A stretch of 64,000 nucleotides of DNA from Actinomycetota bacterium (GCA_036519575.1 DATDKZ010000162.1:1628-65627), one strand, 5' to 3'. Counted from the first letter of the stretch, positions 21,394-63,082 are shown. Numbers and translations: made by a program. The notes: a model not told the origin generated them from the sequence alone.

Positions 21394-22746
21394 TTGGCGA
21401 CGAGAGCTGACGATGTCCGCCGTCTCCGGCCCGAACGGGTACCGCCCCACAACCTGGAAGCCGAGGAGTCCGTCCTCGGCGCCATGATGCTCTCGACGGA
21501 GGCCATCGCCGACGTCGTCGAGGTGGTCAAGCCCGAGGACTTCTACAAGTCCGCGAACGGCACAATCTTCGACACGCTCCGGGGGATCTACGCGCGGGGT
21601 GATCCGGTCGATGCCATCACCGCAGTCGAGGACCTCCGACGGCGCGGTGTGCTGGAACAGGTCGGCGGGCACCTGTACATCCACGAGCTGGTCGAGCAGG
21701 TGCCGACACCGGCCGCGGCGGGCAACTACGCGCGGATCGTGGCGCAGCACGCGCTCCTGCGGCGACTGATCCAGGCGGCGGGCGACATCATGGAGATGGG
21801 GTACTCGGCCCCTGAGGACCCCGAGCGGGTGGCCGACGAAGCCGAGCAGCGCATCTACGACGTGGCCCGCCACGGCGAGAAGGACCAGGTGGCCTCCCTT
21901 CGGGAGCTGGTGGACCAGGCCATGACCGACCTGGAGCAGATCCAGAACCGGGAGTCGGCCTTCGCCGGCCTGCCGACCGGGTTCCGGGATCTGGACGAGC
22001 TGCTGTCGGGCCTGCAATCGGGCAACCTGGTGATCGTGGCGGCCCGTCCCGGCGTCGGGAAGTCCTCGTTCGCTACGAACGTCGCCAGGAACGCGGCGGT
22101 CGAGTCCAGGGTGCCCGTGGCGATGTTCTCACTCGAGATGTCGAGGTGGGAGATCGGGATGCGCCTCCTGTGCGGCGAGGCGGGGGTCCCTTGGGACCGG
22201 ATCCGGGGGCGGCGCGTGGGCGCCGATGACTGGTCGCGGGTCGTCCAAGCCGCGGAGGTCCTGCACGATGCGCCGCTGTCGATCGTGGACTCGGGCAACG
22301 TCACGATCGTCGATATCAGGGCCAAGGCCCGGCGGCTCGCAGCTCGGAGGCAGGGCCTGGGGCTGATCATCGTGGATTACCTCCAACTGATGTCGCACCA
22401 CCGAAGGGTGGACAACCGTCAGCAGGAGATCGCCGAGATCAGCAGGAGCCTCAAGCTCCTGGCCAAGGAGCTGAAGATCCCGGTCATCGCCGTCTCCCAG
22501 CTGAACCGGGACCCCGAGCGACGGCAGGACAAGCGCCCCCAGCTCTCGGACCTGCGCGAATCTGGTGCGATCGAACAGGATTCCGACGTCGTCATGTTCA
22601 TCCATCGCGATGACTCCGATCCGGCGAAGAAGGGACTCGCCGACCTGATCGTGGCCAAGCACCGGAATGGGCCGACCGACACGGTCCCCGTAACGTTCCT
22701 TCCGCATCTCACGCAGTTCCGGAACTACGCCCCGGCCTCCGCCTAG
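21394..22746 (+). CDS. dnaB: Replicative DNA helicase DnaB (no intein)
   Basis: N-terminal PPHNLEAEESVLGAMM, Walker A GARPGVGKSSFA, RecA-like C-terminal domain. TTG start 3 nt after AGGGGGA. Confidence 0.9.
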   Translation: MATRADDVRRLRPERVPPHNLEAEESVLGAMMLSTEAIADVVEVVKPEDFYKSANGTIFDTLRGIYARGDPVDAITAVEDLRRRGVLEQVGGHLYIHELVEQVPTPAAAGNYARIVAQHALLRRLIQAAGDIMEMGYSAPEDPERVADEAEQRIYDVARHGEKDQVASLRELVDQAMTDLEQIQNRESAFAGLPTGFRDLDELLSGLQSGNLVIVAARPGVGKSSFATNVARNAAVESRVPVAMFSLEMSRWEIGMRLLCGEAGVPWDRIRGRRVGADDWSRVVQAAEVLHDAPLSIVDSGNVTIVDIRAKARRLAARRQGLGLIIVDYLQLMSHHRRVDNRQQEIAEISRSLKLLAKELKIPVIAVSQLNRDPERRQDKRPQLSDLRESGAIEQDSDVVMFIHRDDSDPAKKGLADLIVAKHRNGPTDTVPVTFLPHLTQFRNYAPASA

Positions 22747-23491: not shown

Positions 23492-23565
23492 TGGAGCGGG
23501 CGAGGGGAATCGAACCCCCGTCTCGAGCTTGGGAAGCTCACGTTCTGCCATTGAACCACGCCCGC
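23492..23565 (-). tRNA. tRNA-Gly (anticodon CCC), 74 nt, CCA encoded
   Basis: Cloverleaf folded by hand: acceptor GCGGGCG/CGCCCGC, anticodon arm TGAGC-TTCCCAA-GCTCG, T-arm GGGGG-TTCGATT-CCCCT, then CCA. Confidence 0.85.
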
Positions 23566-24774: not shown

Positions 24775-25353
24775 ATGATCCTCTCGGACGTCGACATCCG
24801 AAAGGAGATCGAATCGGGCCGCATCGTGATCGACCCGTTCGACCCGGCCGCGATCCAGCCGTCCTCGATCGACCTCCACGTCGACGACCGATTCCGTGTG
24901 TTCGCCAACTCACGGTACCCCTACATCGACGTGAAGAAGGAGATGCCCGGCCTCACCGAGGTGGTCGAGGTCGCCGACCCGGACCCGTTCATCCTGCACC
25001 CCGGTGAATTCGTGCTGGGGTCGACCCTCGAACGCGTCGCCATCCCCGACGACATGGTCGCCAGGCTGGAGGGCAAGTCGTCTCTCGGACGACTCGGTCT
25101 CCTGATCCACTCGACTGCCGGGTACGTGGATCCAGGGTGGGACGGCTTCCTCACCCTGGAGCTGTCGAACGTGGCCAATCTCCCCATCACGATCTACCCG
25201 GGAATGAAGATCGGACAGATCTCGTTCTTCCGGCTCTCGACCCCCGCCGAGCGGCCGTACGGGTCCAGCGAGACCAGGAGCAAGTACCAGGGGCAGCGCG
25301 GTCCGACGGCCAGCCGGTTCTTCGAGGAGTTCGGCGAGCCGGGAACTCGCTGA
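24775..25353 (+). CDS. dcd: dCTP deaminase
   Basis: 192 aa: [12 protein letters not shown]…SSIDLHV…[12 protein letters not shown] is the dUTPase-fold Dcd family. Confidence 0.9.
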
Positions 25354-25372
25354 CGCCGGACCGACTCGCCGC

Positions 25373-28300
25373 TCAGCCGATCTGAGGATCGCCCGACCGG
25401 GCGCCCAGCCGGTACAGGGCTCCCTCGGCCGCGGCCACGACCTCCGGCACGGGGTCGTTGAGGACCGCCGCGACGATCGCATCCGCACCGCGCGGATCCC
25501 CCAGCGTGGCCAGGAACTGCGTGGAGCGGAGCCGGATCCGCTCGTCCGGATCCGAGAGCACCCCGATCAGGGCGTCGACGGCCTCGGGGCCACCGACCGC
25601 TCCGATGGCCTCGACGGCCCGTAACCGCGCATCCGCTTCCGTGGAGTCGAGGCGTCCCGCGAGCCGGGCCACCCCGACCACGTCTCGGAGCAAGCCACCC
25701 ACGATGGGCACCACTTCGGCGGTCCCGTGGAGCAACACGTCGATGAGCAACTCCTGCGACGAGGGCCCGATCTTCCTCAGAAGGTCGGTGGCGGCATCGC
25801 GCAGGTTGGGAACGGCCAGCACACCGGCCAGCCGCTTGGCAACCGCTGGCGAGCTCCATTGAGTGAGGACCTCGCTGGCAGCCGTTCGCACCCCCGCATC
25901 GTCGTCCTGGAGCGCAGCCACCAGGAAGCCGAGCACCGCCTCGTCGTCGATGACGCCCAGGGCTCGCACGGCCTCCACCCGAACCTCGGGGAACGAATCG
26001 CCGATGGCATTGCCCAGCGCTTGCACCGCGGACGTGTCGCGGAGGCGCCCGAGAGCCGACGCGGCCGCCGCCCGAACCGCGGGGACCGGATCCTGGAGGG
26101 ACTGGATCGATGCCTCGAGGCAAGCCTGGCTCCCGCTCCATCCGGCCAGCTCGAGGGCCAGCACCCGTTCGTCCTGGTCGGGCGACGCGTGGTGCTTGAG
26201 CGCGAGCTCGGTCAGGGCGGCTTCGTTGGTGTGGGAGAACACCGAGCCGAGCTCGGTCCGCTCCTCGGGTCGGCACTGGCGAAGGGCCGACCACACGAAC
26301 TCGTGATCGTTATCCTCCCTGGTAGCGAGCTGGTTCATGGCCGCGCGCCTGACCGATTCTTCCCCATCGGACAATCCCTGGAGAACGAAGGGATCGGCCT
26401 CCCGACCCAGGCCCGGCGCGAGCTCATCGAGGGCCGCGGCCCGAACGACCGGATCGAGATCGGCCATCGCCCGGGTCATGGCAGCGGAGGTATCGATGTT
26501 GGCCATGGCGATCACGTGGACGGCTGCGGCTCGAAGGGGCGCCGACTGATCGGTCTCAAGCACGAACCGGGCGATGTCCACGTAGCTCGGGTCGCCGGAT
26601 TCACCCATCACCTCCAGGACCGCCATGCGGACCGGAACCGACGAGTCGTCGAGATGTCCCCGAAGGTAGGGCATCACGGTCGGACCCGACGCGCTCCAGA
26701 GCACTCGGATCGCCTCTGGTTTGCGAGATTCGTCCACCTGCCCCAGCAGGCCGATGAGGTCCTCCAGCCGCACCCGGGCGAGGGCCTTCAGGAACGGGTC
26801 GCGCGCCTCGAGCGGAAGCTCCATCGCTCGGTTCAGGATGTCTAGTCCGAGCTCGTAAAGGCGGAGCGCGCCCACGGTCTCCGCCGCGGCGGACGCCATC
26901 TCCACGTCACCGGTGCGCATGGCTTCGCGGGCCCACGCCAGCACACGGCCTCGCTCCACCCCTCCCAGGCTCGACCGTGCGAGGTAGCGGACCGCCTCGT
27001 CTGCATCGTGCAACGACCGGGCGAGTGACGCGATGCGTTCGGCCTCCACCGGAGCAAGGGACGCGTCGTCGGCGAACTCCGTTCCGGCGACCGCGGACTC
27101 GTCGGTTCGGGCGATGGCGTCGGCGGCGACCTCCGCCACTTCGCGGATCTCGTCCAGGGGGTCCGAGACCAGGGTGGCCAGCGCCCGGAGGATCTCCGGA
27201 GCCTCTTCGCCCTCCACCAGGATCCGGACGGCCCCCAGACGCCTGACGTCGGGCAGCGACAGGCTACCGACCAGTCGCGAGATGCCGATGGCCCGGCTGA
27301 GCCGCGCGATCGATGTGCCTTCTGCGGTTGTGGGCGGGGAATCCATCTCGCCGATCGAGGTCAGGAGCAGGTCGAGCTCGGTCTCATCGAGGGTGGACGT
27401 CGATGCCAAGAGCTCGGGCAGCAGCTCGAGCGCTGCCGCTTGGGTGAGCGGCCAGCGGCGTGCGGCGATCAGCGGAGCAAGTAGCACGAGATCCCGAGAA
27501 CCACGTTCGGCTGCAAGGCGAACCGCCGCGGCCCGAACCTCGTCGGCTGGGTCCATGAGTGCCTGCTTGATCGTGGCGTCGTCGACACGGTCGGCCCGGT
27601 TCGACAGGACCCCTAGGGCCAACCGGCGGACCTCCTGATCCGGGTCGAGCAACAAGCCAACGACCTGCTCCAGCTCGCTATCGCCCGGGCCGCGCTCGTT
27701 AAGCTCCCGGAGGGCACGGCGCCGCTCGTCCGGATCGCGAGCGGCAAGCGAAGGGCCGACGGACTCCGGCTGGGGCTCCGGCGCCGGCTCCGGACGCGGC
27801 TCGTCAGCTTGGCTGGGCGCAACATCGGCTTTCCAAGCGCCGGCTTCGACAGCTTCAACGGCTTGGGCAGGTCCGCCCGGCTCGGCCGCGACGGCACGAT
27901 CCGGTTCGACGGGCTCGGGGCTGTGAGGAGCCTCCGGCTTTGCCGCCCTGAGCGCACTCAGCCGTCGCTGCAGGATTTCGACGGCCGAGGGCTTCGAGAC
28001 ATCCGCCGCAGGTTGCTCGGGCTCAACCGGCGCTGGCGGCTCGGGGATCTCCGCCGCAGGTTGCTCGGGCTCAACCGGCGCGGGCGGCTCGAGGATCTCC
28101 GCCGCAGGTTGCTCGGGCTCAACCGGTGCTGGCGCCTCTGACGTCTGGGGGGCAGGCTGCTCGAGCTTCGGCGGTGCCTGCGGCTCATCCTCGGACGAGC
28201 GCTGATCAGGCGGTTGCGAGGCGGCGGGGGCCTCCTCCTCATCCTCCTCCGCGATCTTGGCGCGGCGCTCTGCCAGCGCCTTCAAGCTCCGGTACCAATC

Positions 28301-28450
28301 CTCCTCGTACGCGTCCACCTGTTTGCCCTTCGGAGGTGAGCCATCCGCTTCGGAGCCCCCGGCTGCGCCGGAGGAGGCGTCACTGTCCTCGGATCCGTCT
28401 TCTCCCTTCTGGCCGAGGAAGCCGCCGATCAGACCCTGCTTGCGTTCCAT
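25373..28450 (-). CDS. Large HEAT-repeat (PBS-lyase/E-Z type) protein with an approximately 270-aa acidic Pro/Glu-rich disordered N-terminal region
   Basis: 1,025 aa with more than 15 degenerate HEAT units (DPxxEVRxxAxxxLGxLG). N-terminus MERKQGLIGGFLGQKGE…DWYRSLKALAERRAKIAEE, followed by 16-aa tandem repeats PPAPVEPEQPAAEIxE. Confidence 0.75.
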   Translation of the reverse strand: MERKQGLIGGFLGQKGEDGSEDSDASSGAAGGSEADGSPPKGKQVDAYEEDWYRSLKALAERRAKIAEEDEEEAPAASQPPDQRSSEDEPQAPPKLEQPAPQTSEAPAPVEPEQPAAEILEPPAPVEPEQPAAEIPEPPAPVEPEQPAADVSKPSAVEILQRRLSALRAAKPEAPHSPEPVEPDRAVAAEPGGPAQAVEAVEAGAWKADVAPSQADEPRPEPAPEPQPESVGPSLAARDPDERRRALRELNERGPGDSELEQVVGLLLDPDQEVRRLALGVLSNRADRVDDATIKQALMDPADEVRAAAVRLAAERGSRDLVLLAPLIAARRWPLTQAAALELLPELLASTSTLDETELDLLLTSIGEMDSPPTTAEGTSIARLSRAIGISRLVGSLSLPDVRRLGAVRILVEGEEAPEILRALATLVSDPLDEIREVAEVAADAIARTDESAVAGTEFADDASLAPVEAERIASLARSLHDADEAVRYLARSSLGGVERGRVLAWAREAMRTGDVEMASAAAETVGALRLYELGLDILNRAMELPLEARDPFLKALARVRLEDLIGLLGQVDESRKPEAIRVLWSASGPTVMPYLRGHLDDSSVPVRMAVLEVMGESGDPSYVDIARFVLETDQSAPLRAAAVHVIAMANIDTSAAMTRAMADLDPVVRAAALDELAPGLGREADPFVLQGLSDGEESVRRAAMNQLATREDNDHEFVWSALRQCRPEERTELGSVFSHTNEAALTELALKHHASPDQDERVLALELAGWSGSQACLEASIQSLQDPVPAVRAAAASALGRLRDTSAVQALGNAIGDSFPEVRVEAVRALGVIDDEAVLGFLVAALQDDDAGVRTAASEVLTQWSSPAVAKRLAGVLAVPNLRDAATDLLRKIGPSSQELLIDVLLHGTAEVVPIVGGLLRDVVGVARLAGRLDSTEADARLRAVEAIGAVGGPEAVDALIGVLSDPDERIRLRSTQFLATLGDPRGADAIVAAVLNDPVPEVVAAAEGALYRLGARSGDPQIG
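27992..28135. repeat. 48-bp coding tandem repeat, about three copies, inside the HEAT-protein gene
   Basis: The motif ccgccgcagg recurs at 48-nt intervals (period 48) with near-identical units that diverge in the third copy. Encodes 3 x PPAPVEPEQPAAEI. Confidence 0.7.
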
Positions 28451-28589
28451 CTATCCGCCGCCTCCGGCCGTCCCCTTCCCGCTCCGCGATGCGGGCGCCC
28501 GTCGTCCATCTCCGGCCGTGCCCGAGCCTCTCCGGGCTCGCCCGGATCCACTCCTCACCGCCGCCGGCATCTCGGTGACCACGGGGGGG

Positions 28590-29297
28590 TCACCGCCGCG
28601 TCGTTGCGTTGGAGGGCTCCACATGCTCCGGGTCCATCGCGAACGGCGTCGGACCGATCCCCATCGAGACCGCGGCCATCGCGGCCTGCGTGCGATTGCT
28701 CACGCCGAGCTTCCGGAAGACCGCTGCGAGGTGCGCTTTCACGGTCTTCTCGGACAGGAACAGGGCCCGGGAGATGTCTCGGTTGCTCTTTCCCTCGGCC
28801 AGCAGAGCCAGGATGTCGGTCTCTCGCTGCGTGAGGCTGGTCGACGGACGGCTGTGCGTCTCGCTTTGGTCGCCGCTTCCTACCTCCATGGCGTCGAACA
28901 GGTTCTGGATGACCCTTGGCGACAGGACGTTGCCGCCACCTGAGATCGCCACCTTGATCGCTTGCTCCAGGTCCTCCGGCGTCGCGTCCTTCAGCAGGTA
29001 CCCGGCGGCGCCCTCAGCCAGGGCTCGCCGCACGTAATGCGCATGGTCGAACGTGGTGAGCACGATCACGGGCACCTTGGGCCATCTGGTCCGCAGATCG
29101 TGGAGCAGCTCGAGCCCGTCTGTGTTCGGCATCCGCACGTCTACGAGGGCGACGTCAACCGGGTCTGCCTCCATCACCCGAAGAGCTTCGTCCGCGCCCG
29201 CAGTCTCCTCGACGTCCGCTTCGCTGAAGCATTCGCGCACGACGTGAGCCATGCCGCGACGCACCAGCGCGTGATCGTCAACGATCATGATCCTCAA
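28590..29297 (-). CDS. LuxR/NarL-family response regulator
   Basis: REC (MIVDDHALVRRG…VALVDVRMP) plus LuxR HTH (TQRETDILALLAEGKSNRDISRALFLSEKTVKAH). Confidence 0.85.
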   Translation of the reverse strand: MRIMIVDDHALVRRGMAHVVRECFSEADVEETAGADEALRVMEADPVDVALVDVRMPNTDGLELLHDLRTRWPKVPVIVLTTFDHAHYVRRALAEGAAGYLLKDATPEDLEQAIKVAISGGGNVLSPRVIQNLFDAMEVGSGDQSETHSRPSTSLTQRETDILALLAEGKSNRDISRALFLSEKTVKAHLAAVFRKLGVSNRTQAAMAAVSMGIGPTPFAMDPEHVEPSNATTRR

Positions 29298-30265
29298 GGT
29301 TCGTCTCCTTGCTCGTCGACGGGTAGCCGGGCGACCACCCGAGTCCCGCGCCCAGGGGACGACTCGATGTCGACGGTGCCGCGCACCTCCGCCACCAGGC
29401 GTCGCATCATCTCCAGACCCAGATGGCCCTCCCCCGGCTCCTCCGGGGAGGCCTCAAAGCCTTGTCCCCGGTCTTCGACCTGCACCTCGATGCGCCGTGG
29501 GGTCGCTTGAACCCTCACAGCCACGTCCTTTGATGCCGAATGCTTGGCCGCGTTGGCCACCCCTTCCCGGATGACGGAGGAGGCCGCCTGGAGGATCGGA
29601 CCGTGAACGGCGCGGACGTCGCCCTCGATCGACCAGGAGGCGGGGAGCCGCCACCGCTCCAGCACCTTCTGCACGACCAGCTCGAGCGATTCCTCCTGGC
29701 GCGATCCGTCCTCCGACGATCCATCAGGCGACAGGGCGGCCAGCATCCGCCGGATCTCCTCCAGAGCTCGTCGGAGCTCGGTCGCCGCCTCGGCCAGAGC
29801 CGCCGTGGCCTGCGTGGGGTCGAGCTCGACCCGTCTTGCCATCCACTCCAGTTCGAGCACCGACGCCGTCACGACCTGCGTGAGCCCATCGTGGATTGCA
29901 TAGGCCCACCGGGTGCGCTCCTTCGCGTATGGATCGTCGAGTCCCTCCGAGGCGGAGGGTCTCCGGCCCGCGAGCGACGAAAGCATCCCTCGCAACGCGG
30001 CGACCGAGCGGACGGAAGACTTCGGAGTGAGGCGGGCGAACACCAGGTCGTCACCGCGCGGGCATGCGATCCAGCCCTCGGCCCGTCCTTCGAGCACATC
30101 GTCGAGGTGAAGGGGAAGCGGTCCCGACCCGGGTGTGGCCCACCAGGCGATCCTCCGAGAGGACTGGCCGGATCGCATGATGCCCACGGCGTCGAGGTTC
30201 AAGAGCTCGGCGAGGCGCCGGCATTCGGCGGCTTCGTCGGCCTCGTGGACGACAGCTGTCTCCAC
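29294..30265 (-). CDS. Cytoplasmic sensor histidine kinase (N-terminal GAF-like/unknown sensory domain, HisKA_3, HATPase)
   Basis: H-box RWAYAIHDGLTQ; G-boxes DRGQGF / GLGLEMM; no TM segment. GTG 30265 preceded by AAGGAAGGG. ATGA overlap with the regulator gene. Confidence 0.75.
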   Translation of the reverse strand: METAVVHEADEAAECRRLAELLNLDAVGIMRSGQSSRRIAWWATPGSGPLPLHLDDVLEGRAEGWIACPRGDDLVFARLTPKSSVRSVAALRGMLSSLAGRRPSASEGLDDPYAKERTRWAYAIHDGLTQVVTASVLELEWMARRVELDPTQATAALAEAATELRRALEEIRRMLAALSPDGSSEDGSRQEESLELVVQKVLERWRLPASWSIEGDVRAVHGPILQAASSVIREGVANAAKHSASKDVAVRVQATPRRIEVQVEDRGQGFEASPEEPGEGHLGLEMMRRLVAEVRGTVDIESSPGRGTRVVARLPVDEQGDEP

Positions 30266-30502
30266 CCGTTCCCTTCCTTCTCGGCCGGCACGGCCCACGG
30301 TCGTGCTGCCTGCCTCTCGCCCTTGATATCGCGGACGACACCGGGGGTCGTCCGTTCGACCAAGCCAAGCCGTTCGGTCTAGTTCTTCCTTCGGAAAGTT
30401 CAGGGGCGCGCTTGAACCGGCGCCCCGAGGCAACCGCGGCGATGGAAGTCGCGGGGGGGTCGGCGAGCGCGACCCGTCGGTCCAAGAGGACCAGGGAGGG
30501 GG

Positions 30503-32515
30503 CTACTCCGAAGGGACTAGGTGATCCCTCGACATGGCCAGGATCTGCGCGACGTCGGCTACTTCCACGTCGTCGCCCCGGGCCCGGGCTCCATCGTCCA
30601 ACATCACGAGGCAGAAGGGACAGGCCACACCGACCATGTCCGCGCCGGTGGAAGCGGCCTCGTCCATGCGCTCCCGGTTGATGCGCTTCCCGATCCGCTC
30701 CTCCATCCACATCCGGGCTCCCCCCGCACCGCAACACAGGCCCCGGGTCCCGTGGCGGGGCATCTCAACGGTCGACAGGCCGGGTACCGAATCCAGGAGC
30801 TGCCGCGGCTCCCCGTAGACGCCGTTGTGCCGCCCCAGGTAGCAGGGGTCGTGATAGGCGAGCAGGGCCCGCACCGGGCCCGTTGGTCGGAGGCGGCCGT
30901 CCTCGACCAGTTGGGCGAGCAGCTGGGTGTGATGGAGCACCTCGTACCGACCCCCATAGTCCGGGTACTCGTTGCGGAGCACGTTGAAGCAGTGAGGGCA
31001 GTTGGCCACGATCTTGGTGACTCCCGAGCCGTCGAGCGTGGCCACGTTCTGCTCCGCCAACGTCTGGAAAAGGTACTCGTTCCCGATGCGGCGAGCCGGG
31101 TCGCCGGTGCACAGCTCCTGCGGTCCAAGGATGGCGAAGGACACTCCGGCATCGCGGAGGAGGCCGGCCACGGCGCGCGAGACTCCGCGGGCTCGGTCGT
31201 CGAACGAGCCGGCGCATCCTACCCAGTAGATGAACTCCGGAGCTTGCTCGCCCGGGCCGAGCTGAGGCACATCCATCCCCTCGGCCCACGTCGCGCGCTG
31301 TGACTGGGGCTGACCCCACGGGTTCCCGGAAGTCTCCAGGTTCCGAAGGAGCTCGGCCGACTCGGGAGGGAATCGTGACTCACCCATCACCAGGTTCCGA
31401 CGGAGGTCGACGATGTGGTCGATGTGCTCGATGTCCACGGGACACTCCTGCATGCACGCGCCGCACGTCGTGCAGGCCCACACGACCTCTTCGTCCACGA
31501 TCTCTGGGACGAGCGGGGTCTTCCGGATATCGCCGGACGTCGTTCCGGCCTCGAGGATCTTCGGTCCTTCCTCGAACAGGTGGTCCCGGAGGTTCATGAT
31601 CAAGAGCTTCGGCGACAGCGGCTTGCCGGTGTTCCAAGCCGGACACGCGCTCTGACATCTCCCGCATTCGGTGCACGCGTAGAGGTCCAGGGCCTCCTTC
31701 CACGTGAGGTCCTCGACCGTCGCGGCGCCGAGCCGCATCTGGTCGGTGTCGGGCGCGTCCACGTCGATCCGGAGCGGCGTCAAGTACCCCCGGGGTTTGG
31801 TGTTCGAGAAGAACACGTTGATCGAACTGGTGAAGATGTGCAGGTGCTTCGAATACGGGATGTAGACCAGGAACCCCAGGATGAGCAGGAGATGTGTCCA
31901 CAGGAAGAACGGCTCGTAGAGACGAAGCACCGTCGGGGTCATGGGCTCGAACACGCGAGCGAGCCCGCGCGAGAGGGGTGTCCACGTGGGGTCGGCCTCG
32001 GCGATGCCCCGGGCGATCCGGATCGCGTTCAGCGCGAACAGCGTGAGCATGATGCCGAGGATCCACACCAGGATGAGGTCCGCCTCCTGCATGTGGCTGC
32101 CCACGAACCGCTCCGGGCGTTGGACCTTGCGGATGGCGAAGGCCATGAGGACCCCGATCACGACCAGGAGGGCGAACAGGTCCTGGAGAAGCCCGAGCCA
32201 CCCGCTGCGACCGATCAACGGCAGGGCGAAATCCGGCTCGACTGCCTGCCCCATGGCTTCGATGATCGTGGTCAGAAGCACCAGGAAGCCCCAGAAGATG
32301 AGCGCGTGCATCACCCCGGGCAGGAGGCGCTGGAGAAGCTTTCGCTGGCCGAGCACGACGGTCACCTCGCGCTCCACCCTCACCGGCACGTCGCGCGTTC
32401 GATCCACGGCCCGGCCCAGACGCACCAGCCCGTACAGCAGGCGGGCGCGCCGGGCGAAGAGTCCCGCCGCAGCGGCAACGAGGGCCAGGAGGATCGCCGC
32501 AGGCAGGAGCATCAA
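30503..32515 (-). CDS. Membrane-bound Fe-S oxidoreductase (NarI-like heme-b membrane domain fused to HdrD/GlpC-like domain; mycobacterial Rv0338c-type)
   Basis: 670 aa: 5-6 N-terminal TM helices, CxxCxxCxxxCP ferredoxin motifs (CTECGRCQSACP, CTTCGACMQECP), C-terminal Cys-rich CCG repeats. Confidence 0.7.
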   Translation of the reverse strand: MMLLPAAILLALVAAAAGLFARRARLLYGLVRLGRAVDRTRDVPVRVEREVTVVLGQRKLLQRLLPGVMHALIFWGFLVLLTTIIEAMGQAVEPDFALPLIGRSGWLGLLQDLFALLVVIGVLMAFAIRKVQRPERFVGSHMQEADLILVWILGIMLTLFALNAIRIARGIAEADPTWTPLSRGLARVFEPMTPTVLRLYEPFFLWTHLLLILGFLVYIPYSKHLHIFTSSINVFFSNTKPRGYLTPLRIDVDAPDTDQMRLGAATVEDLTWKEALDLYACTECGRCQSACPAWNTGKPLSPKLLIMNLRDHLFEEGPKILEAGTTSGDIRKTPLVPEIVDEEVVWACTTCGACMQECPVDIEHIDHIVDLRRNLVMGESRFPPESAELLRNLETSGNPWGQPQSQRATWAEGMDVPQLGPGEQAPEFIYWVGCAGSFDDRARGVSRAVAGLLRDAGVSFAILGPQELCTGDPARRIGNEYLFQTLAEQNVATLDGSGVTKIVANCPHCFNVLRNEYPDYGGRYEVLHHTQLLAQLVEDGRLRPTGPVRALLAYHDPCYLGRHNGVYGEPRQLLDSVPGLSTVEMPRHGTRGLCCGAGGARMWMEERIGKRINRERMDEAASTGADMVGVACPFCLVMLDDGARARGDDVEVADVAQILAMSRDHLVPSE

Positions 32516-32660
32516 TTGGCGAGTGTATATGCGGAGCCGACGGCAGGTTCACCTCCCTTGGGGCGCCTCCCCGGGCCTTGCCGCCCACCCGAGGGCCCCT
32601 TGCCCTCCGCGGTGTTCAGTGCTCAGACCTCATGCCCGTCACAGTCTGGTCATGCCTAAC

Positions 32661-32721
32661 CTTGACACTAAAGGACTCAGACTTTATTCTGCGATTCAGA
32701 TCAAGAACTTACTCAGGAGGG
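32661..32721 (+). promoter_or_regulatory. dnaK promoter/operator: -35 TTGACA (32662-67), 17-nt spacer, -10 TATTCT (32685-90); HAIR-like IR CTTGACA-N7-ACTCAGA (32661-81); RBS AGGAGGG (32715-21)
   Basis: Read directly. The IR resembles the HspR operator consensus CTTGAGT-N7-ACTCAAG (5/7 and 5/7), and hspR is the last gene of the operon. Confidence 0.45.
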
Positions 32722-32728
32722 TTCACTC

Positions 32729-34576
32729 ATGCCACGAGCGGTAGGAATCGACCTGGGGACGACCAACTCCGTGGTGTCCGTCCTGGAGGCGGGCGAGCCG
32801 GTGGTCATCCCCAATGCGGAGGGCTCCCGGACCACCCCATCGGTGGTCGGGTTCTCAAGGAACGGCGAGATCCTGGTCGGTGAGGTCGCGAAGCGTCAGG
32901 CCATCACCAACCCGGACCGGACCGTGCGTTCCGTGAAGCGCGAGATGGGCCGGAAGGACTGGAACGTCGAGGTCGACGGGAAGCGTTGGACTCCTCAGGA
33001 GATCTCCGCCCAGATCCTGACGAAGTTGAAGCGGGACGCCGAGGCCTACCTGGGCGATTCGGTCGCACAGGCTGTCATCACCGTCCCCGCCTACTTCGAC
33101 GACGCGCAGCGCCAGGCCACCAAGGAAGCGGGCCAGATCGCAGGCCTGGAGGTCCTTCGGATCATCAACGAGCCGACCGCGGCCTCCCTCGCCTACGGCC
33201 TGGACAAGCAACACGATCAGACCATCCTCGTGTTCGACCTGGGCGGCGGGACGTTCGACGTGTCGCTGCTGGAGATCGGCGAGGGGGTCTTCGAGGTCAA
33301 GGCCACGCATGGCGACACGCACCTCGGTGGCGACGACTGGGATCAGCGGGTCATCGACTGGATGGTGAGGGAGTTCAAGAACGCTCACGGCGTGGACCTG
33401 GCGGCCGACCGCATGGCCCTCCAGCGGCTGAAGGAGGCCGCCGAGAAGGCGAAGATCGAGCTGTCCCAAGTGGCAGAGACCACGATCAACCTCCCGTTCG
33501 TCACCGCGACGGCGGAGGGTCCGCTGCACCTGGAGATGAAGCTCACCCGATCGGAGTTCGAGCGCATGACCGCCGACCTGGTCGAGCGGACCGAGGGGCC
33601 ATTCCGCCAGGCCGTGAAGGATTGGGGCAAGGACGTCTCGGCCATCGACCACGTGATCCTGGTCGGCGGGGCCACGCGCATGCCGATGATCCAGGACCTG
33701 ATCCGCAAGCTCACCGGCGGCCAGGAGCCGCACAAGGGAGTGAACCCCGACGAGGTCGTCGCGGTCGGCGCCGCCGTCCAGGCGGGCGTGCTGAAGGGCG
33801 ACGTCAAGGACATCCTGCTCCTCGACGTCACGCCGCTCACGCTCGGCGTGGAGACGAAGGGCGGGATCTTCACCAAGCTCATTGAGCGGAACACGACCAT
33901 CCCCACCCGCAAGAGCGAGATCTTCACGACCGCGGACGACAACCAGACCACGGTCGAGATCCACGTCCTCCAGGGCGAGGCCGAGACCGTGTTCTCGCCG
34001 GGCGTGCGTTCGCTCGGGAAGTTCCACCTGATGGGCATCCCGCCGGCGCCCCGCGGCATGCCGCAGATCGAGGTGGCGTTCGACATCGACGCGAACGGGA
34101 TCGCGAACGTCTCCGCCAAGGACCTGGCCACCGGCAAGGAGCAGCAGATGACTATCACCGGGGGTACGGCCCTGTCGAAGGACGACATCGACCGCATGGT
34201 CAAGGACGCGGAGAAGTTCGCGGCCGAGGACCACACGCGGCGGGAGGCGGCCGAAGCCCGGAACGCCGGGGACCAGCTCAGCTACCAGATCGACCGGTCG
34301 CTCCAGGAGTGGGGCGACAAGGTCCCAGAAGGCGACCGTGAGGAGCTCAAGAAGACGAATGACGAGCTCAAGGAGGCGCTGAAGGGGGAGGACGTCGCGC
34401 GGATCCGTTCGGCGACGGAGGCCACCATGCAGGTCTTCCAGCGCATCGGCCAGGCCATGTATCAGCAGACCCAGGCTCAGGCCGGACCGCAGCAGGGCCC
34501 GGCCGAGAGCGCGCCCCAGGGCGGCGAGGGAGATGTCGTCGAGGGCGAGATCGTGGACGAGGGAAGCGGTTCATGA
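32729..34576 (+). CDS. dnaK: Molecular chaperone DnaK (Hsp70)
   Basis: 615 aa with canonical Hsp70 motifs IDLGTTNS and DLGGGTFD. Confidence 0.95.
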
Positions 34577-62983: not shown

Positions 62984-63009
62984 CGGGCCTCGCCCACGCC
63001 GCGACCTCG

Positions 63010-63082
63010 TGGCCAGGGGCAGAATCGAACTGCCGACACCGCGGTTTTCAGCCGCGTGCTCTGCCAACTGAGCTACCTGGCC
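63010..63082 (-). tRNA. tRNA-Phe (anticodon GAA), 73 nt, CCA not encoded
   Basis: GGCCAGGTAGCTCAGTTGGCAGAGCACGCGGCTGAAAACCGCGGTGTCGGCAGTTCGATTCTGCCCCTGGCCA folds as a canonical cloverleaf with anticodon loop CUGAAAA. Confidence 0.85.

Follow-up and report, generated by a model that had tools for sequence, protein, structure and literature searches.

How is a very large HEAT-repeat protein connected to the two-component system beside which it is encoded, and through which of its parts? The question is raised by a locus in a 64,000-nucleotide (nt) stretch of Actinomycetota bacterium DNA (GCA_036519575.1 DATDKZ010000162.1:1628-65627), called the window here and numbered from its first letter. 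Between positions 25373 and 30265 the minus strand encodes a soluble sensor histidine kinase, a NarL/LuxR-type response regulator and, after a gap of 139 nt, a protein of 1,025 amino acids (aa) that combines an acidic disordered N-terminal region with a long HEAT array. An earlier note, made from the sequence alone, had described exactly this order and gap, and had drawn attention to the HEAT array. Comparison of the locus with its relatives indicates that what is coupled to the two-component system is a short peptide near the N-terminus, AYEEDWYRSLKALAERR, and not the array, because relatives keep a protein with this motif after the regulator without the HEAT array.

The comparisons draw on several collections. 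With each GTDB species represented by one genome, a scan yielded 29 orthologous loci, 23 of which have upstream DNA; searching metagenomes with the kinase as anchor added 80 loci, 64 of which have enough DNA after the regulator. Kinase-anchored loci number approximately 90 in total, and the neighbourhood of each locus was viewed over +/-7-10 kb. The HEAT protein family was collected from 5.8 billion proteins and comprises approximately 75 clusters scoring 343-1890 bits against only about 100 bits for generic HEAT proteins; this sharp gap in score below 343 bits sets the family apart as a discrete group. All named sources of the family are Actinomycetota/Actinobacteria metagenome-assembled genomes, and the carriers of the three genes are uncultured Actinomycetota from soil and groundwater.

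The product of the third gene has four parts: a short basic N-terminus, a helix containing the conserved peptide (motif A), a spacer rich in proline, glutamate and alanine, and a solenoid of approximately 23 HEAT repeats. Motif A, DAYEEDWYRSLKALAERR (28262..28315, minus strand), is the most conserved element of the family. Its core, AYEEDWYRSLKALAERR, spans aa 47-63 and its fuller form of 18 residues, (V/E)AYEEDWYRSLKALAERR, spans aa 46-63, within a helix predicted at aa 47-72 by AlphaFold2 (AF2). Expressed as the mean fraction of 59 aligned sequences sharing the commonest residue, conservation is 0.83 for motif A, compared with 0.64 for the HEAT array and approximately 0.3 for the linkers. 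The motif was found in about 60 of the 75 family members. It also lies in a plus-strand open reading frame (ORF) after the regulator in about 61 of the 64 metagenome loci, with its first residue 69-280 nt beyond the regulator stop, and in approximately 85 loci, each viewed over +/-7-10 kb, the motif gene was never found away from the regulator. Residues by which the motif was located are necessarily invariant. At the DNA level there are 48 distinct versions of it, in which the alanine, arginine and leucine positions use four to five codons while the residue stays constant; such synonymous variation at fixed residues therefore argues for selection on the peptide.

Divergent loci carry the variant REAYEP[GS]WYR, which occurs twice within one gene in loci L017 and L020. 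The positions of REAYEP[GS]WYR[IV] are ~9263 and ~9710 in L017 and ~4450 and ~4785 in L020, and L015 has RESYEPGWYAV at ~9000; these three are the most divergent long-form loci, and their kinase has an insertion of about 500 nt. Pfam and NCBIfam gave no match for the short forms described below or for the N-terminal 232 aa of the window protein. A 44-column motif profile found nothing at E<=10 among 6,066 candidates, although so short a profile is probably insensitive against 5.8 billion sequences. When aa 1-75 of the window protein were compared with 1.84 billion representatives by phmmer, ten of the 12 matches were family members or fragments, at a sensitivity that leaves short forms undetectable. 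Two STAND/TPR-type repeat proteins, P0235 (1148 aa) and P0236 (639 aa), have a repeat consensus, PDAYRADWAHSLGNLA, that is superficially like the motif, and we judged the likeness to be chance. Though probably accidental, it suggests TPR-like packing as one possibility for the motif helix.

That the motif is separable from the array is seen in the contigs that encode the kinase homologue P0166 (63% identical). Here the order is CCG gene, kinase, regulator, a 56-aa ORF and then dcd, and the 56-aa ORF, MFKKEKETVDEPEAPAKKPKVEEHAYEDSWYRALKAKSERRGDTDEDDEQVEGSDD, consists of the motif and an acidic tail. Such forms are frequent. About 30 of the kinase-anchored loci have a third gene of this HEAT-less kind; among the approximately 61 motif-bearing metagenome loci there are about 28 long forms with a HEAT array and about 28 short forms without HEAT similarity. 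The short forms fall into sizes of 57-88, 115-140 or 181-230 aa, are acidic, begin with MFKKKD or MFRRTE, and are followed directly by dcd. Their ORFs of 57-230 aa lie directly after the regulator (for example L043 9679-9849, L076 8662-8868, L086 1907-2101, L120 8348-8521 and L101 1667-2359), starting approximately 10-25 nt past the regulator stop or overlapping it (L076, L101, L104). The motif takes the form AYED[SNA]WYR[SA]LKA in them, and the acidic tails frequently include brief tandem repeats, for example (EEAV)n or (AEAEPE)n. Only motif A, always with acidic sequence after it, is shared by every form of the third gene.

The distribution of long and short forms was compared with a neighbour-joining tree of the C-terminal 200 aa of the kinase together with the regulator. 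The deepest branches, and a large clade that includes the window, contain long forms throughout, and a second clade mixes short and long forms. Specifically, the kinase and regulator of the long-form loci L019, L007, L008, L013, L084 and L090 are 74-77% identical to those of short-form loci and 66-69% identical to those of other long forms. Repeated loss is the parsimonious account because long and short forms are interleaved and the HEAT arrays are all homologous from end to end. From these sequence relationships the array has probably been lost on several occasions, with the motif retained; the count, at least two or three losses, is approximate because the tree is midpoint-rooted and carries no support values.

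Kinase, regulator and HEAT gene follow one another in this order on a single strand in 23 of the 23 GTDB species loci that have upstream DNA, and HEAT identity among syntenic loci falls as low as 36-42%. The earlier note had made its proposal depend on such linkage holding in other genomes, which it does, in support of a functional tie between the HEAT gene and the signalling pair. In the window the gap between the regulator and the HEAT gene (28451..28589, minus strand) contains GGAGG 11 nt before the ATG, and no terminator or sigma-70-like promoter is predicted in its 139 nt; across 17 related loci the gap is 23-161 nt and free of ORFs. The flanks differ around the constant trio: L005, L012 and L014 lack the CCG gene, L015, L017 and L018 lack dcd, and L010 carries an insertion. 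With its conserved co-occurrence in both genome and metagenome loci, the trio forms an operon specific to this lineage and preceded by a conserved leader of its own.

This leader occupies 30266..30425 (minus strand) in the alignment of 17-19 loci, within the 240 nt that separate the CCG gene from the kinase. Its elements are box 1, GTTCAAG (~30411-30417), box 2, CCGAAGGAAGAACTAGACCGAACGG (30370-30394), a variable hairpin (30333-30353), box 3, GAGGCAGGC (30308-30316), and a covarying hairpin (30288-30306) followed by the ribosome-binding site, all on the minus strand. The boxes are near-invariant in the aligned loci, and in L001-L030 the leader lies approximately 120-200 nt 5' of the kinase. 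Each locus has a single box 2, always 5' of the kinase; it is unique in the window and is kept in loci that have no CCG gene, and a 1-nt indel that falls inside it in some loci shows it to be non-coding. Compensatory changes occur in four of the five pairs of the terminal hairpin, with 94% of cells paired, a result reached by none of 500 shuffles. The leader as a whole was rejected as a structured RNA: its stability is no better than that of shuffles (z=+0.69), and covariation is confined to the terminal hairpin. Rfam returned nothing relevant at E<=10 in 30150-30560, the only gathering-level matches in the window being two tRNAs, and boxes 1 and 2, judged by eye and not by a formal test, fit no sigma-70, extracytoplasmic function (ECF), SigB/F or WhiG promoter spacing. 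The leader marks the start of the three-gene unit, and it may be an operator, a promoter or an RNA element.

The third gene itself (25373..28450, minus strand) is one uninterrupted ORF from its ATG. An AF2 model, built with a 59-sequence family alignment, has a mean predicted local distance difference test score (pLDDT) of 82 for the whole protein and exceeds 90 over aa 235-1020 (25391..27748, minus strand), where 47 helices, located within aa 240-1015, form approximately 23 HEAT repeats of the PBS/alphaRep type; the structure prediction proposed in the earlier note has in this way yielded a confident HEAT solenoid. Pfam agrees with the model and the ORF on a 1,025-aa HEAT-repeat protein, as had been read from the sequence. 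HEAT_2 (PF13646) matches at E=2e-53 across eight stretches (179 bits vs a cut-off of 27.7), HEAT (PF02985) scores 91.9 vs 23.5 and HEAT_PBS (PF03130) 56.1 vs 20.9, over helix-turn-helix repeats of approximately 31 aa. Foldseek matches to this alpha-solenoid are all HEAT solenoids, and those in the PDB are solely generic HEAT scaffolds (SF3B1, karyopherin-beta2, CAND1, PP2A-A) at a template modelling (TM) score of 0.16-0.27 and a root-mean-square deviation of ~20 A; by sequence, the best PDB matches are alphaRep proteins. NCBIfam equivalog cut-offs are not reached (NblB 57.8 vs 300, CpcE 39.3 vs 330, PRK13800 59.4 vs 1196), and because the NblB and CpcE scores lie so far under their cut-offs the third protein is not a bilin lyase.

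Family matches share the C-terminal 77% of the protein, which is the HEAT array, and differ in N-terminal length. The best-conserved patch within the array, a non-canonical segment, TQWSSPAVAKRLAGVLAVPNLR...ELLIDVL (aa 863-906; 25733-25864, minus strand), matches motif A in conservation (0.81) and is, from its sequence, a candidate binding surface of the solenoid. The whole protein is strongly acidic, with a net charge of -79 and a pI of 4.5. An antisense ORF of 175 aa at 27617-28141 (plus strand), with a third-position GC content (GC3) of 0.88 and overlapping the tandem repeat tract described below, was judged a by-product of composition; it was rejected as coding because the protein-level conservation of motif A, the in-frame repeat variation and the continuity with the HEAT array favour the minus strand. 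The ORF, the HEAT array, the repeat and the features of the signalling pair are not a chance pattern.

Ahead of the solenoid the protein is acidic and disordered, as the earlier note had proposed, but for approximately 234 aa and not the ~270 claimed there, and with two helices inside. The pLDDT is below 50 at aa 1-45, 74-153 and 170-230, and rises to 84-88 in the helix at aa 47-72 and to ~65 in that at aa 156-168. Aspartate and glutamate make up 21% of aa 1-234, proline 18% and alanine 18%, for a net charge of -30. Conservation is low over the first 17 residues (0.46); the MERKQGLIGGFLGQ start is shared by nearer relatives only, its place being taken by MFKKKD in short forms. The linker contains a 48-bp tandem repeat tract (27995..28141, minus strand) that encodes three P/E/A-rich 16-aa copies of PAPVEPEQPAAEI(L/P)EP at aa 104-152. 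Tandem Repeats Finder (TRF) places 2.9 copies of a 48-bp period, with 94% matches, at 28002-28138, or 3.5 copies if the tract is taken to 28167, so that the three units described before stand while their coordinates (27992-28135) shift slightly. The tract had also been called prone to slippage and length variation, and among close relatives the copy number of the 16-aa unit does range from approximately 2 to 8, every change being in frame; some of these relatives have an additional 31-aa repeat. The length of the disordered spacer varies from 80 to 508 aa among family members. The repeat is a real hypervariable linker, because the architecture recurs in independent assemblies with in-frame changes in copy number. 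The second, weakly predicted helix, PSAVEILQRRLSALRAA (aa 154-170; 27941..27991, minus strand; AF2 pLDDT ~65), is limited to the closest relatives of the window, a like pattern being present in only eight of 66 long-form proteins. A helix considered as motif B, SAVEILQRRLSALRAA, is similar to the LLERLRTLR helices in forms of 130-230 aa; with occurrences in just eight of the 66 it was rejected as a family feature. A match to the PspB C-terminus (E=0.05) was weak and under any threshold.

The signalling pair has the properties that the earlier note had ascribed to it, namely a soluble HisKA_3 kinase and a NarL-type regulator. The kinase (29294..30265, minus strand; 323 aa) has no membrane segment and consists of a small N-terminal alpha/beta PAS/GAF-like domain (aa 1-100) and a DesK-like core with a HisKA_3 dimerization and histidine phosphotransfer (DHp) domain and a HATPase_c domain, as assigned by Pfam and AF2. 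Its GTG start at 30265 matches the N-termini of its homologues (~320 aa, beginning V/METAV...). The phospho-acceptor is His125 in AIHDGLTQ; all 32 kinase homologues compared have H125, the N-box ANAAKH and the DxGxGF/GxGT motifs unchanged, which gives the H-box histidine and the N and G boxes of the HisKA_3 class; a fold search with the kinase model returned generic class matches only, with DesK as the best structural match. A nearly invariant Glu-Cys pair lies at the start of the sensor domain (aa 14-15, Cys15; ECRRLA). Together, Cys15 and the neighbouring CCG/4Fe-4S gene are a possible hint, at the level of sequence, of thiol or redox sensing. The regulator (28590..29297, minus strand; 235 aa), the start of which overlaps the kinase stop as TTGA, has a receiver domain (Response_reg, E=3.9e-27) and a GerE helix-turn-helix (E=3e-22) in Pfam. 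The DD at positions 7-8 and the LVDVRMP aspartate are present, as expected of the NarL class, and both proteins retain their catalytic and phospho-acceptor residues. Named NarL-family equivalogs in NCBIfam are not reached (MadR 147 vs 300, NarL 137 vs 250, MctS 77.6 vs 700, LiaS 51.7 vs 450). The regulator is 63-99% identical among related loci.

Beside the operon lies the CCG/4Fe-4S gene (30503-32515, minus strand), and dnaK is at 32729-34576. The sole sigma-70-like promoter match in 25000-33000 is at 32662-32690 on the plus strand (TTGACA-17-TATTCT), just 5' of dnaK. No HspR operator consensus was found close to this match or to the operon; the one match in the window to the HspR operator (HspR-associated inverted repeat, HAIR) is located within grpE/dnaJ and, with three mismatches, is no better than chance. 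The neighbours within +/-10 kb are CCG/Fe-S, dnaK, dcd, trpD, nth and dnaB, with no che genes among them. In four loci dnaB is split by an insertion of approximately 1.2 kb (L001 15622-18237, L021 16858-19200, L026 3774-6374, L028 18002-20620), consistent with an intein, and the window dnaB (21394-22746, plus strand) has no such insertion. The two tRNA genes are tRNA-Gly(CCC) between nth and trpD (23492-23565, minus strand) and tRNA-Phe(GAA) near the window end (63009-63082, minus strand).

What does the third protein do for its operon? The reading we favour, tentatively and at a little short of what we would call probable, is that the trio is an operon in which motif A docks the kinase or the regulator and the HEAT solenoid serves as a tethered platform. 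Motif A would be a putative docking helix for one of its two neighbours, and the third protein would serve the pair as an accessory or connector, tuning phosphotransfer or the activity of the regulator. The spacer may act as an entropic tether, free to vary in length via repeat slippage, and the solenoid on this flexible acidic tether might bind another macromolecule. It could then bring that partner to the signalling pair, or its occupancy could set the availability of motif A. A bolder version, which we consider rather improbable, treats motif A as a new class of docking peptide and the HEAT solenoid as a macromolecule sensor that gates it. Under such gating the helix would be held in cis on the empty solenoid until a cellular ligand freed it toward the kinase or regulator; the input of what would be a three-component system would be the occupancy of the HEAT array by a protein or polymer, and lineages that lost the array would have reduced the third protein to a constitutive small connector.

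Several observations weigh against docking in the signalling pair. Two loci, L110 and L114, have kinase and regulator without a motif ORF. The tree behind the array losses is a midpoint-rooted neighbour-joining tree without support values, every sequence comes from uncultured organisms, and co-transcription of the trio, which is probable from sequence, is deduced only from spacing and the absence of a predicted terminator. Moreover, a 20-kb neighbourhood is collinear in the clade, with clpB-dnaJ-dnaK, then CCG-HK-RR-HEAT (histidine kinase, HK; response regulator, RR) on the other strand, then dcd-trpD-nth-dnaB, and synteny alone is weaker evidence because all of it is shared; linkage could partly be inherited gene order. 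An unlikely alternative that nevertheless deserves real weight draws on some of the same points: the third gene may be an output of the system, a co-transcribed or regulated target whose motif A binds a partner elsewhere (RNA polymerase, a DnaK/ClpB-like chaperone or a division protein), with the HEAT array a general protein-binding scaffold unrelated to phosphotransfer. A position 3' of a regulator is also typical of target genes, the dnaK-grpE-dnaJ-hspR-clpB cluster is a conserved neighbour, motif A is far better conserved than the sensor domain of the kinase, as would suit a very conserved partner, and the loci that keep the pair without the motif gene fit such a role. However, the dnaK operon is on the other strand with the CCG gene between it and the trio, no HspR-type operator is near the operon, the motif gene is always beside the regulator in the approximately 85 loci viewed over +/-7-10 kb, and such short gaps to the regulator point to stoichiometric co-expression of the kind seen in accessory components.

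The remaining explanations deny either the connection or the gene. If adjacency were merely inherited order in a narrow clade, with the HEAT protein unrelated to the two-component system, a collinear region of unrelated housekeeping genes across the same loci is what one would see; we nevertheless give this little chance, since the flanking genes come and go while the trio stays, on one strand, with gaps that are short in long forms, shorter or overlapping in short forms and free of predicted terminators. After loss of the array the motif ORF remains exactly at the 3' end of the regulator, and the leader is found 5' of the kinase only. A membrane anchor, by which the N-terminal segment ties the HEAT array to the membrane, is less probable again. 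The GLIGGFLG stretch is hydrophobic and glycine-rich, and motif A has an aromatic face (Y48, W52, L56, L59), but the poorly conserved first 17 residues give way to MFKKKD in short forms and are disordered in the AF2 model. Motif A itself has a net charge of -1, a mean hydrophobicity of -0.44 and a hydrophobic moment of 0.25 (compared with 0.57 for the FtsA membrane helix), and is flanked by acidic runs, from which cationic bacterial membrane-targeting helices differ. The earlier note had offered a membrane or a partner as the target of this segment; charge, moment and the weakly conserved start speak against the former, and docking to a protein fits better. Finally, the long ORF could be a misassembly or false fusion across the tandem repeat, as that note had itself considered. 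Assembly can collapse at repeats, and in four loci the frame is broken: motif and HEAT array are in different frames in L013 (~10118 vs ~10311) and L014 (~10034 vs ~10243), and premature stops interrupt the ORF in L056 and L057, which could reflect long-read indel errors, split genes or pseudogenes. Against this, motif, linker and HEAT array stand in one frame in more than 50 independent assemblies from different studies, with copy changes in frame, and we reject the artefact as having next to no probability.

Two-component systems with accessory proteins are common, and examples of accessory or connector proteins include YycH/I with WalKR, LpqB with MtrAB, Sda/KipI with KinA, PmrD and SafA. 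The short forms of 57-88 aa match connector proteins in size. By analogy with proteins of the LiaF type, LiaF being the accessory protein of LiaSR (PMC3543457), the third protein is encoded in the same operon directly beside kinase and regulator and is presumed to modulate the pair. Unlike known accessory proteins, to which it has no sequence similarity, the motif module matching no Pfam or NCBIfam family, it is cytoplasmic, acidic and disordered, with one conserved helix and, in the window, a HEAT solenoid of ~790 aa. We know of no accessory protein built from a conserved docking helix and a disordered acidic tether, whether or not a giant HEAT solenoid follows.

For the array, a literature search found no paper on HEAT proteins with two-component systems in Actinobacteria, in keeping with the statement in the earlier note that such scaffolds are essentially uncharacterised there; outside that phylum the statement has to be tempered, because HEAT proteins in receiver-domain signalling do have a precedent. 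In the Che7 system of Myxococcus xanthus the HEAT protein Cpc7 binds the single-domain CheY7 (Darnell et al. 2014, as cited in PMC11514114 and PMC9040617). Among bacterial HEAT proteins that take part in receiver-domain signalling, Cpc7 with CheY7 is the closest precedent: Cpc7 is likewise encoded and acts with a receiver-domain pathway, and it differs in being smaller, with 27 helices, and in belonging to a chemosensory CheA/CheY cluster. In contrast, the window system has a DNA-binding regulator, a classical HisKA_3 kinase and a conserved motif outside the HEAT array, and no CheA/CheW/MCP cluster of the kind that accompanies Cpc7/CheY7 is present at this locus. The PBS-lyase-type HEAT proteins (CpcE/CpcF, NblB) and the alphaRep proteins, which were designed from that type of repeat, share the 31-residue repeat type; unlike CpcE/CpcF and NblB, the third protein is three to four times longer and scores far under their cut-offs. 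To our knowledge Actinomycetota have no phycobilisomes. With PP2A-A, CAND1, karyopherin-beta and SF3B1 it has in common a long alpha-solenoid of approximately 20-25 repeats, and the match is generic only. Importin-alpha has an N-terminal importin-beta-binding (IBB) helix tethered to an ARM solenoid. The third protein mirrors this layout of helix, flexible linker and solenoid by analogy only: motif A is not basic, unlike the IBB helix, and the short forms show that the motif persists without the solenoid.

Because the carriers are uncultured, tests will need synthetic genes, a practical limit. The main interest of the locus lies in the motif A peptide and its natural series of long and short forms, more than in the HEAT array: with both forms at one position, nature has supplied a ready-made deletion series that points to 18 residues. 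The hypervariable repeat spacer is, in addition, a clean case for the evolution of linker length in tethered signalling proteins. By analogy, the system would be a variant of the accessory-protein type of two-component system, so far found only in uncultured Actinomycetota. Should the helix bind one of its two neighbours, kinase or regulator, this would represent a new way to control cytoplasmic histidine kinases, and the long forms would be a rare bacterial case of a HEAT scaffold wired into phosphorelay signalling.

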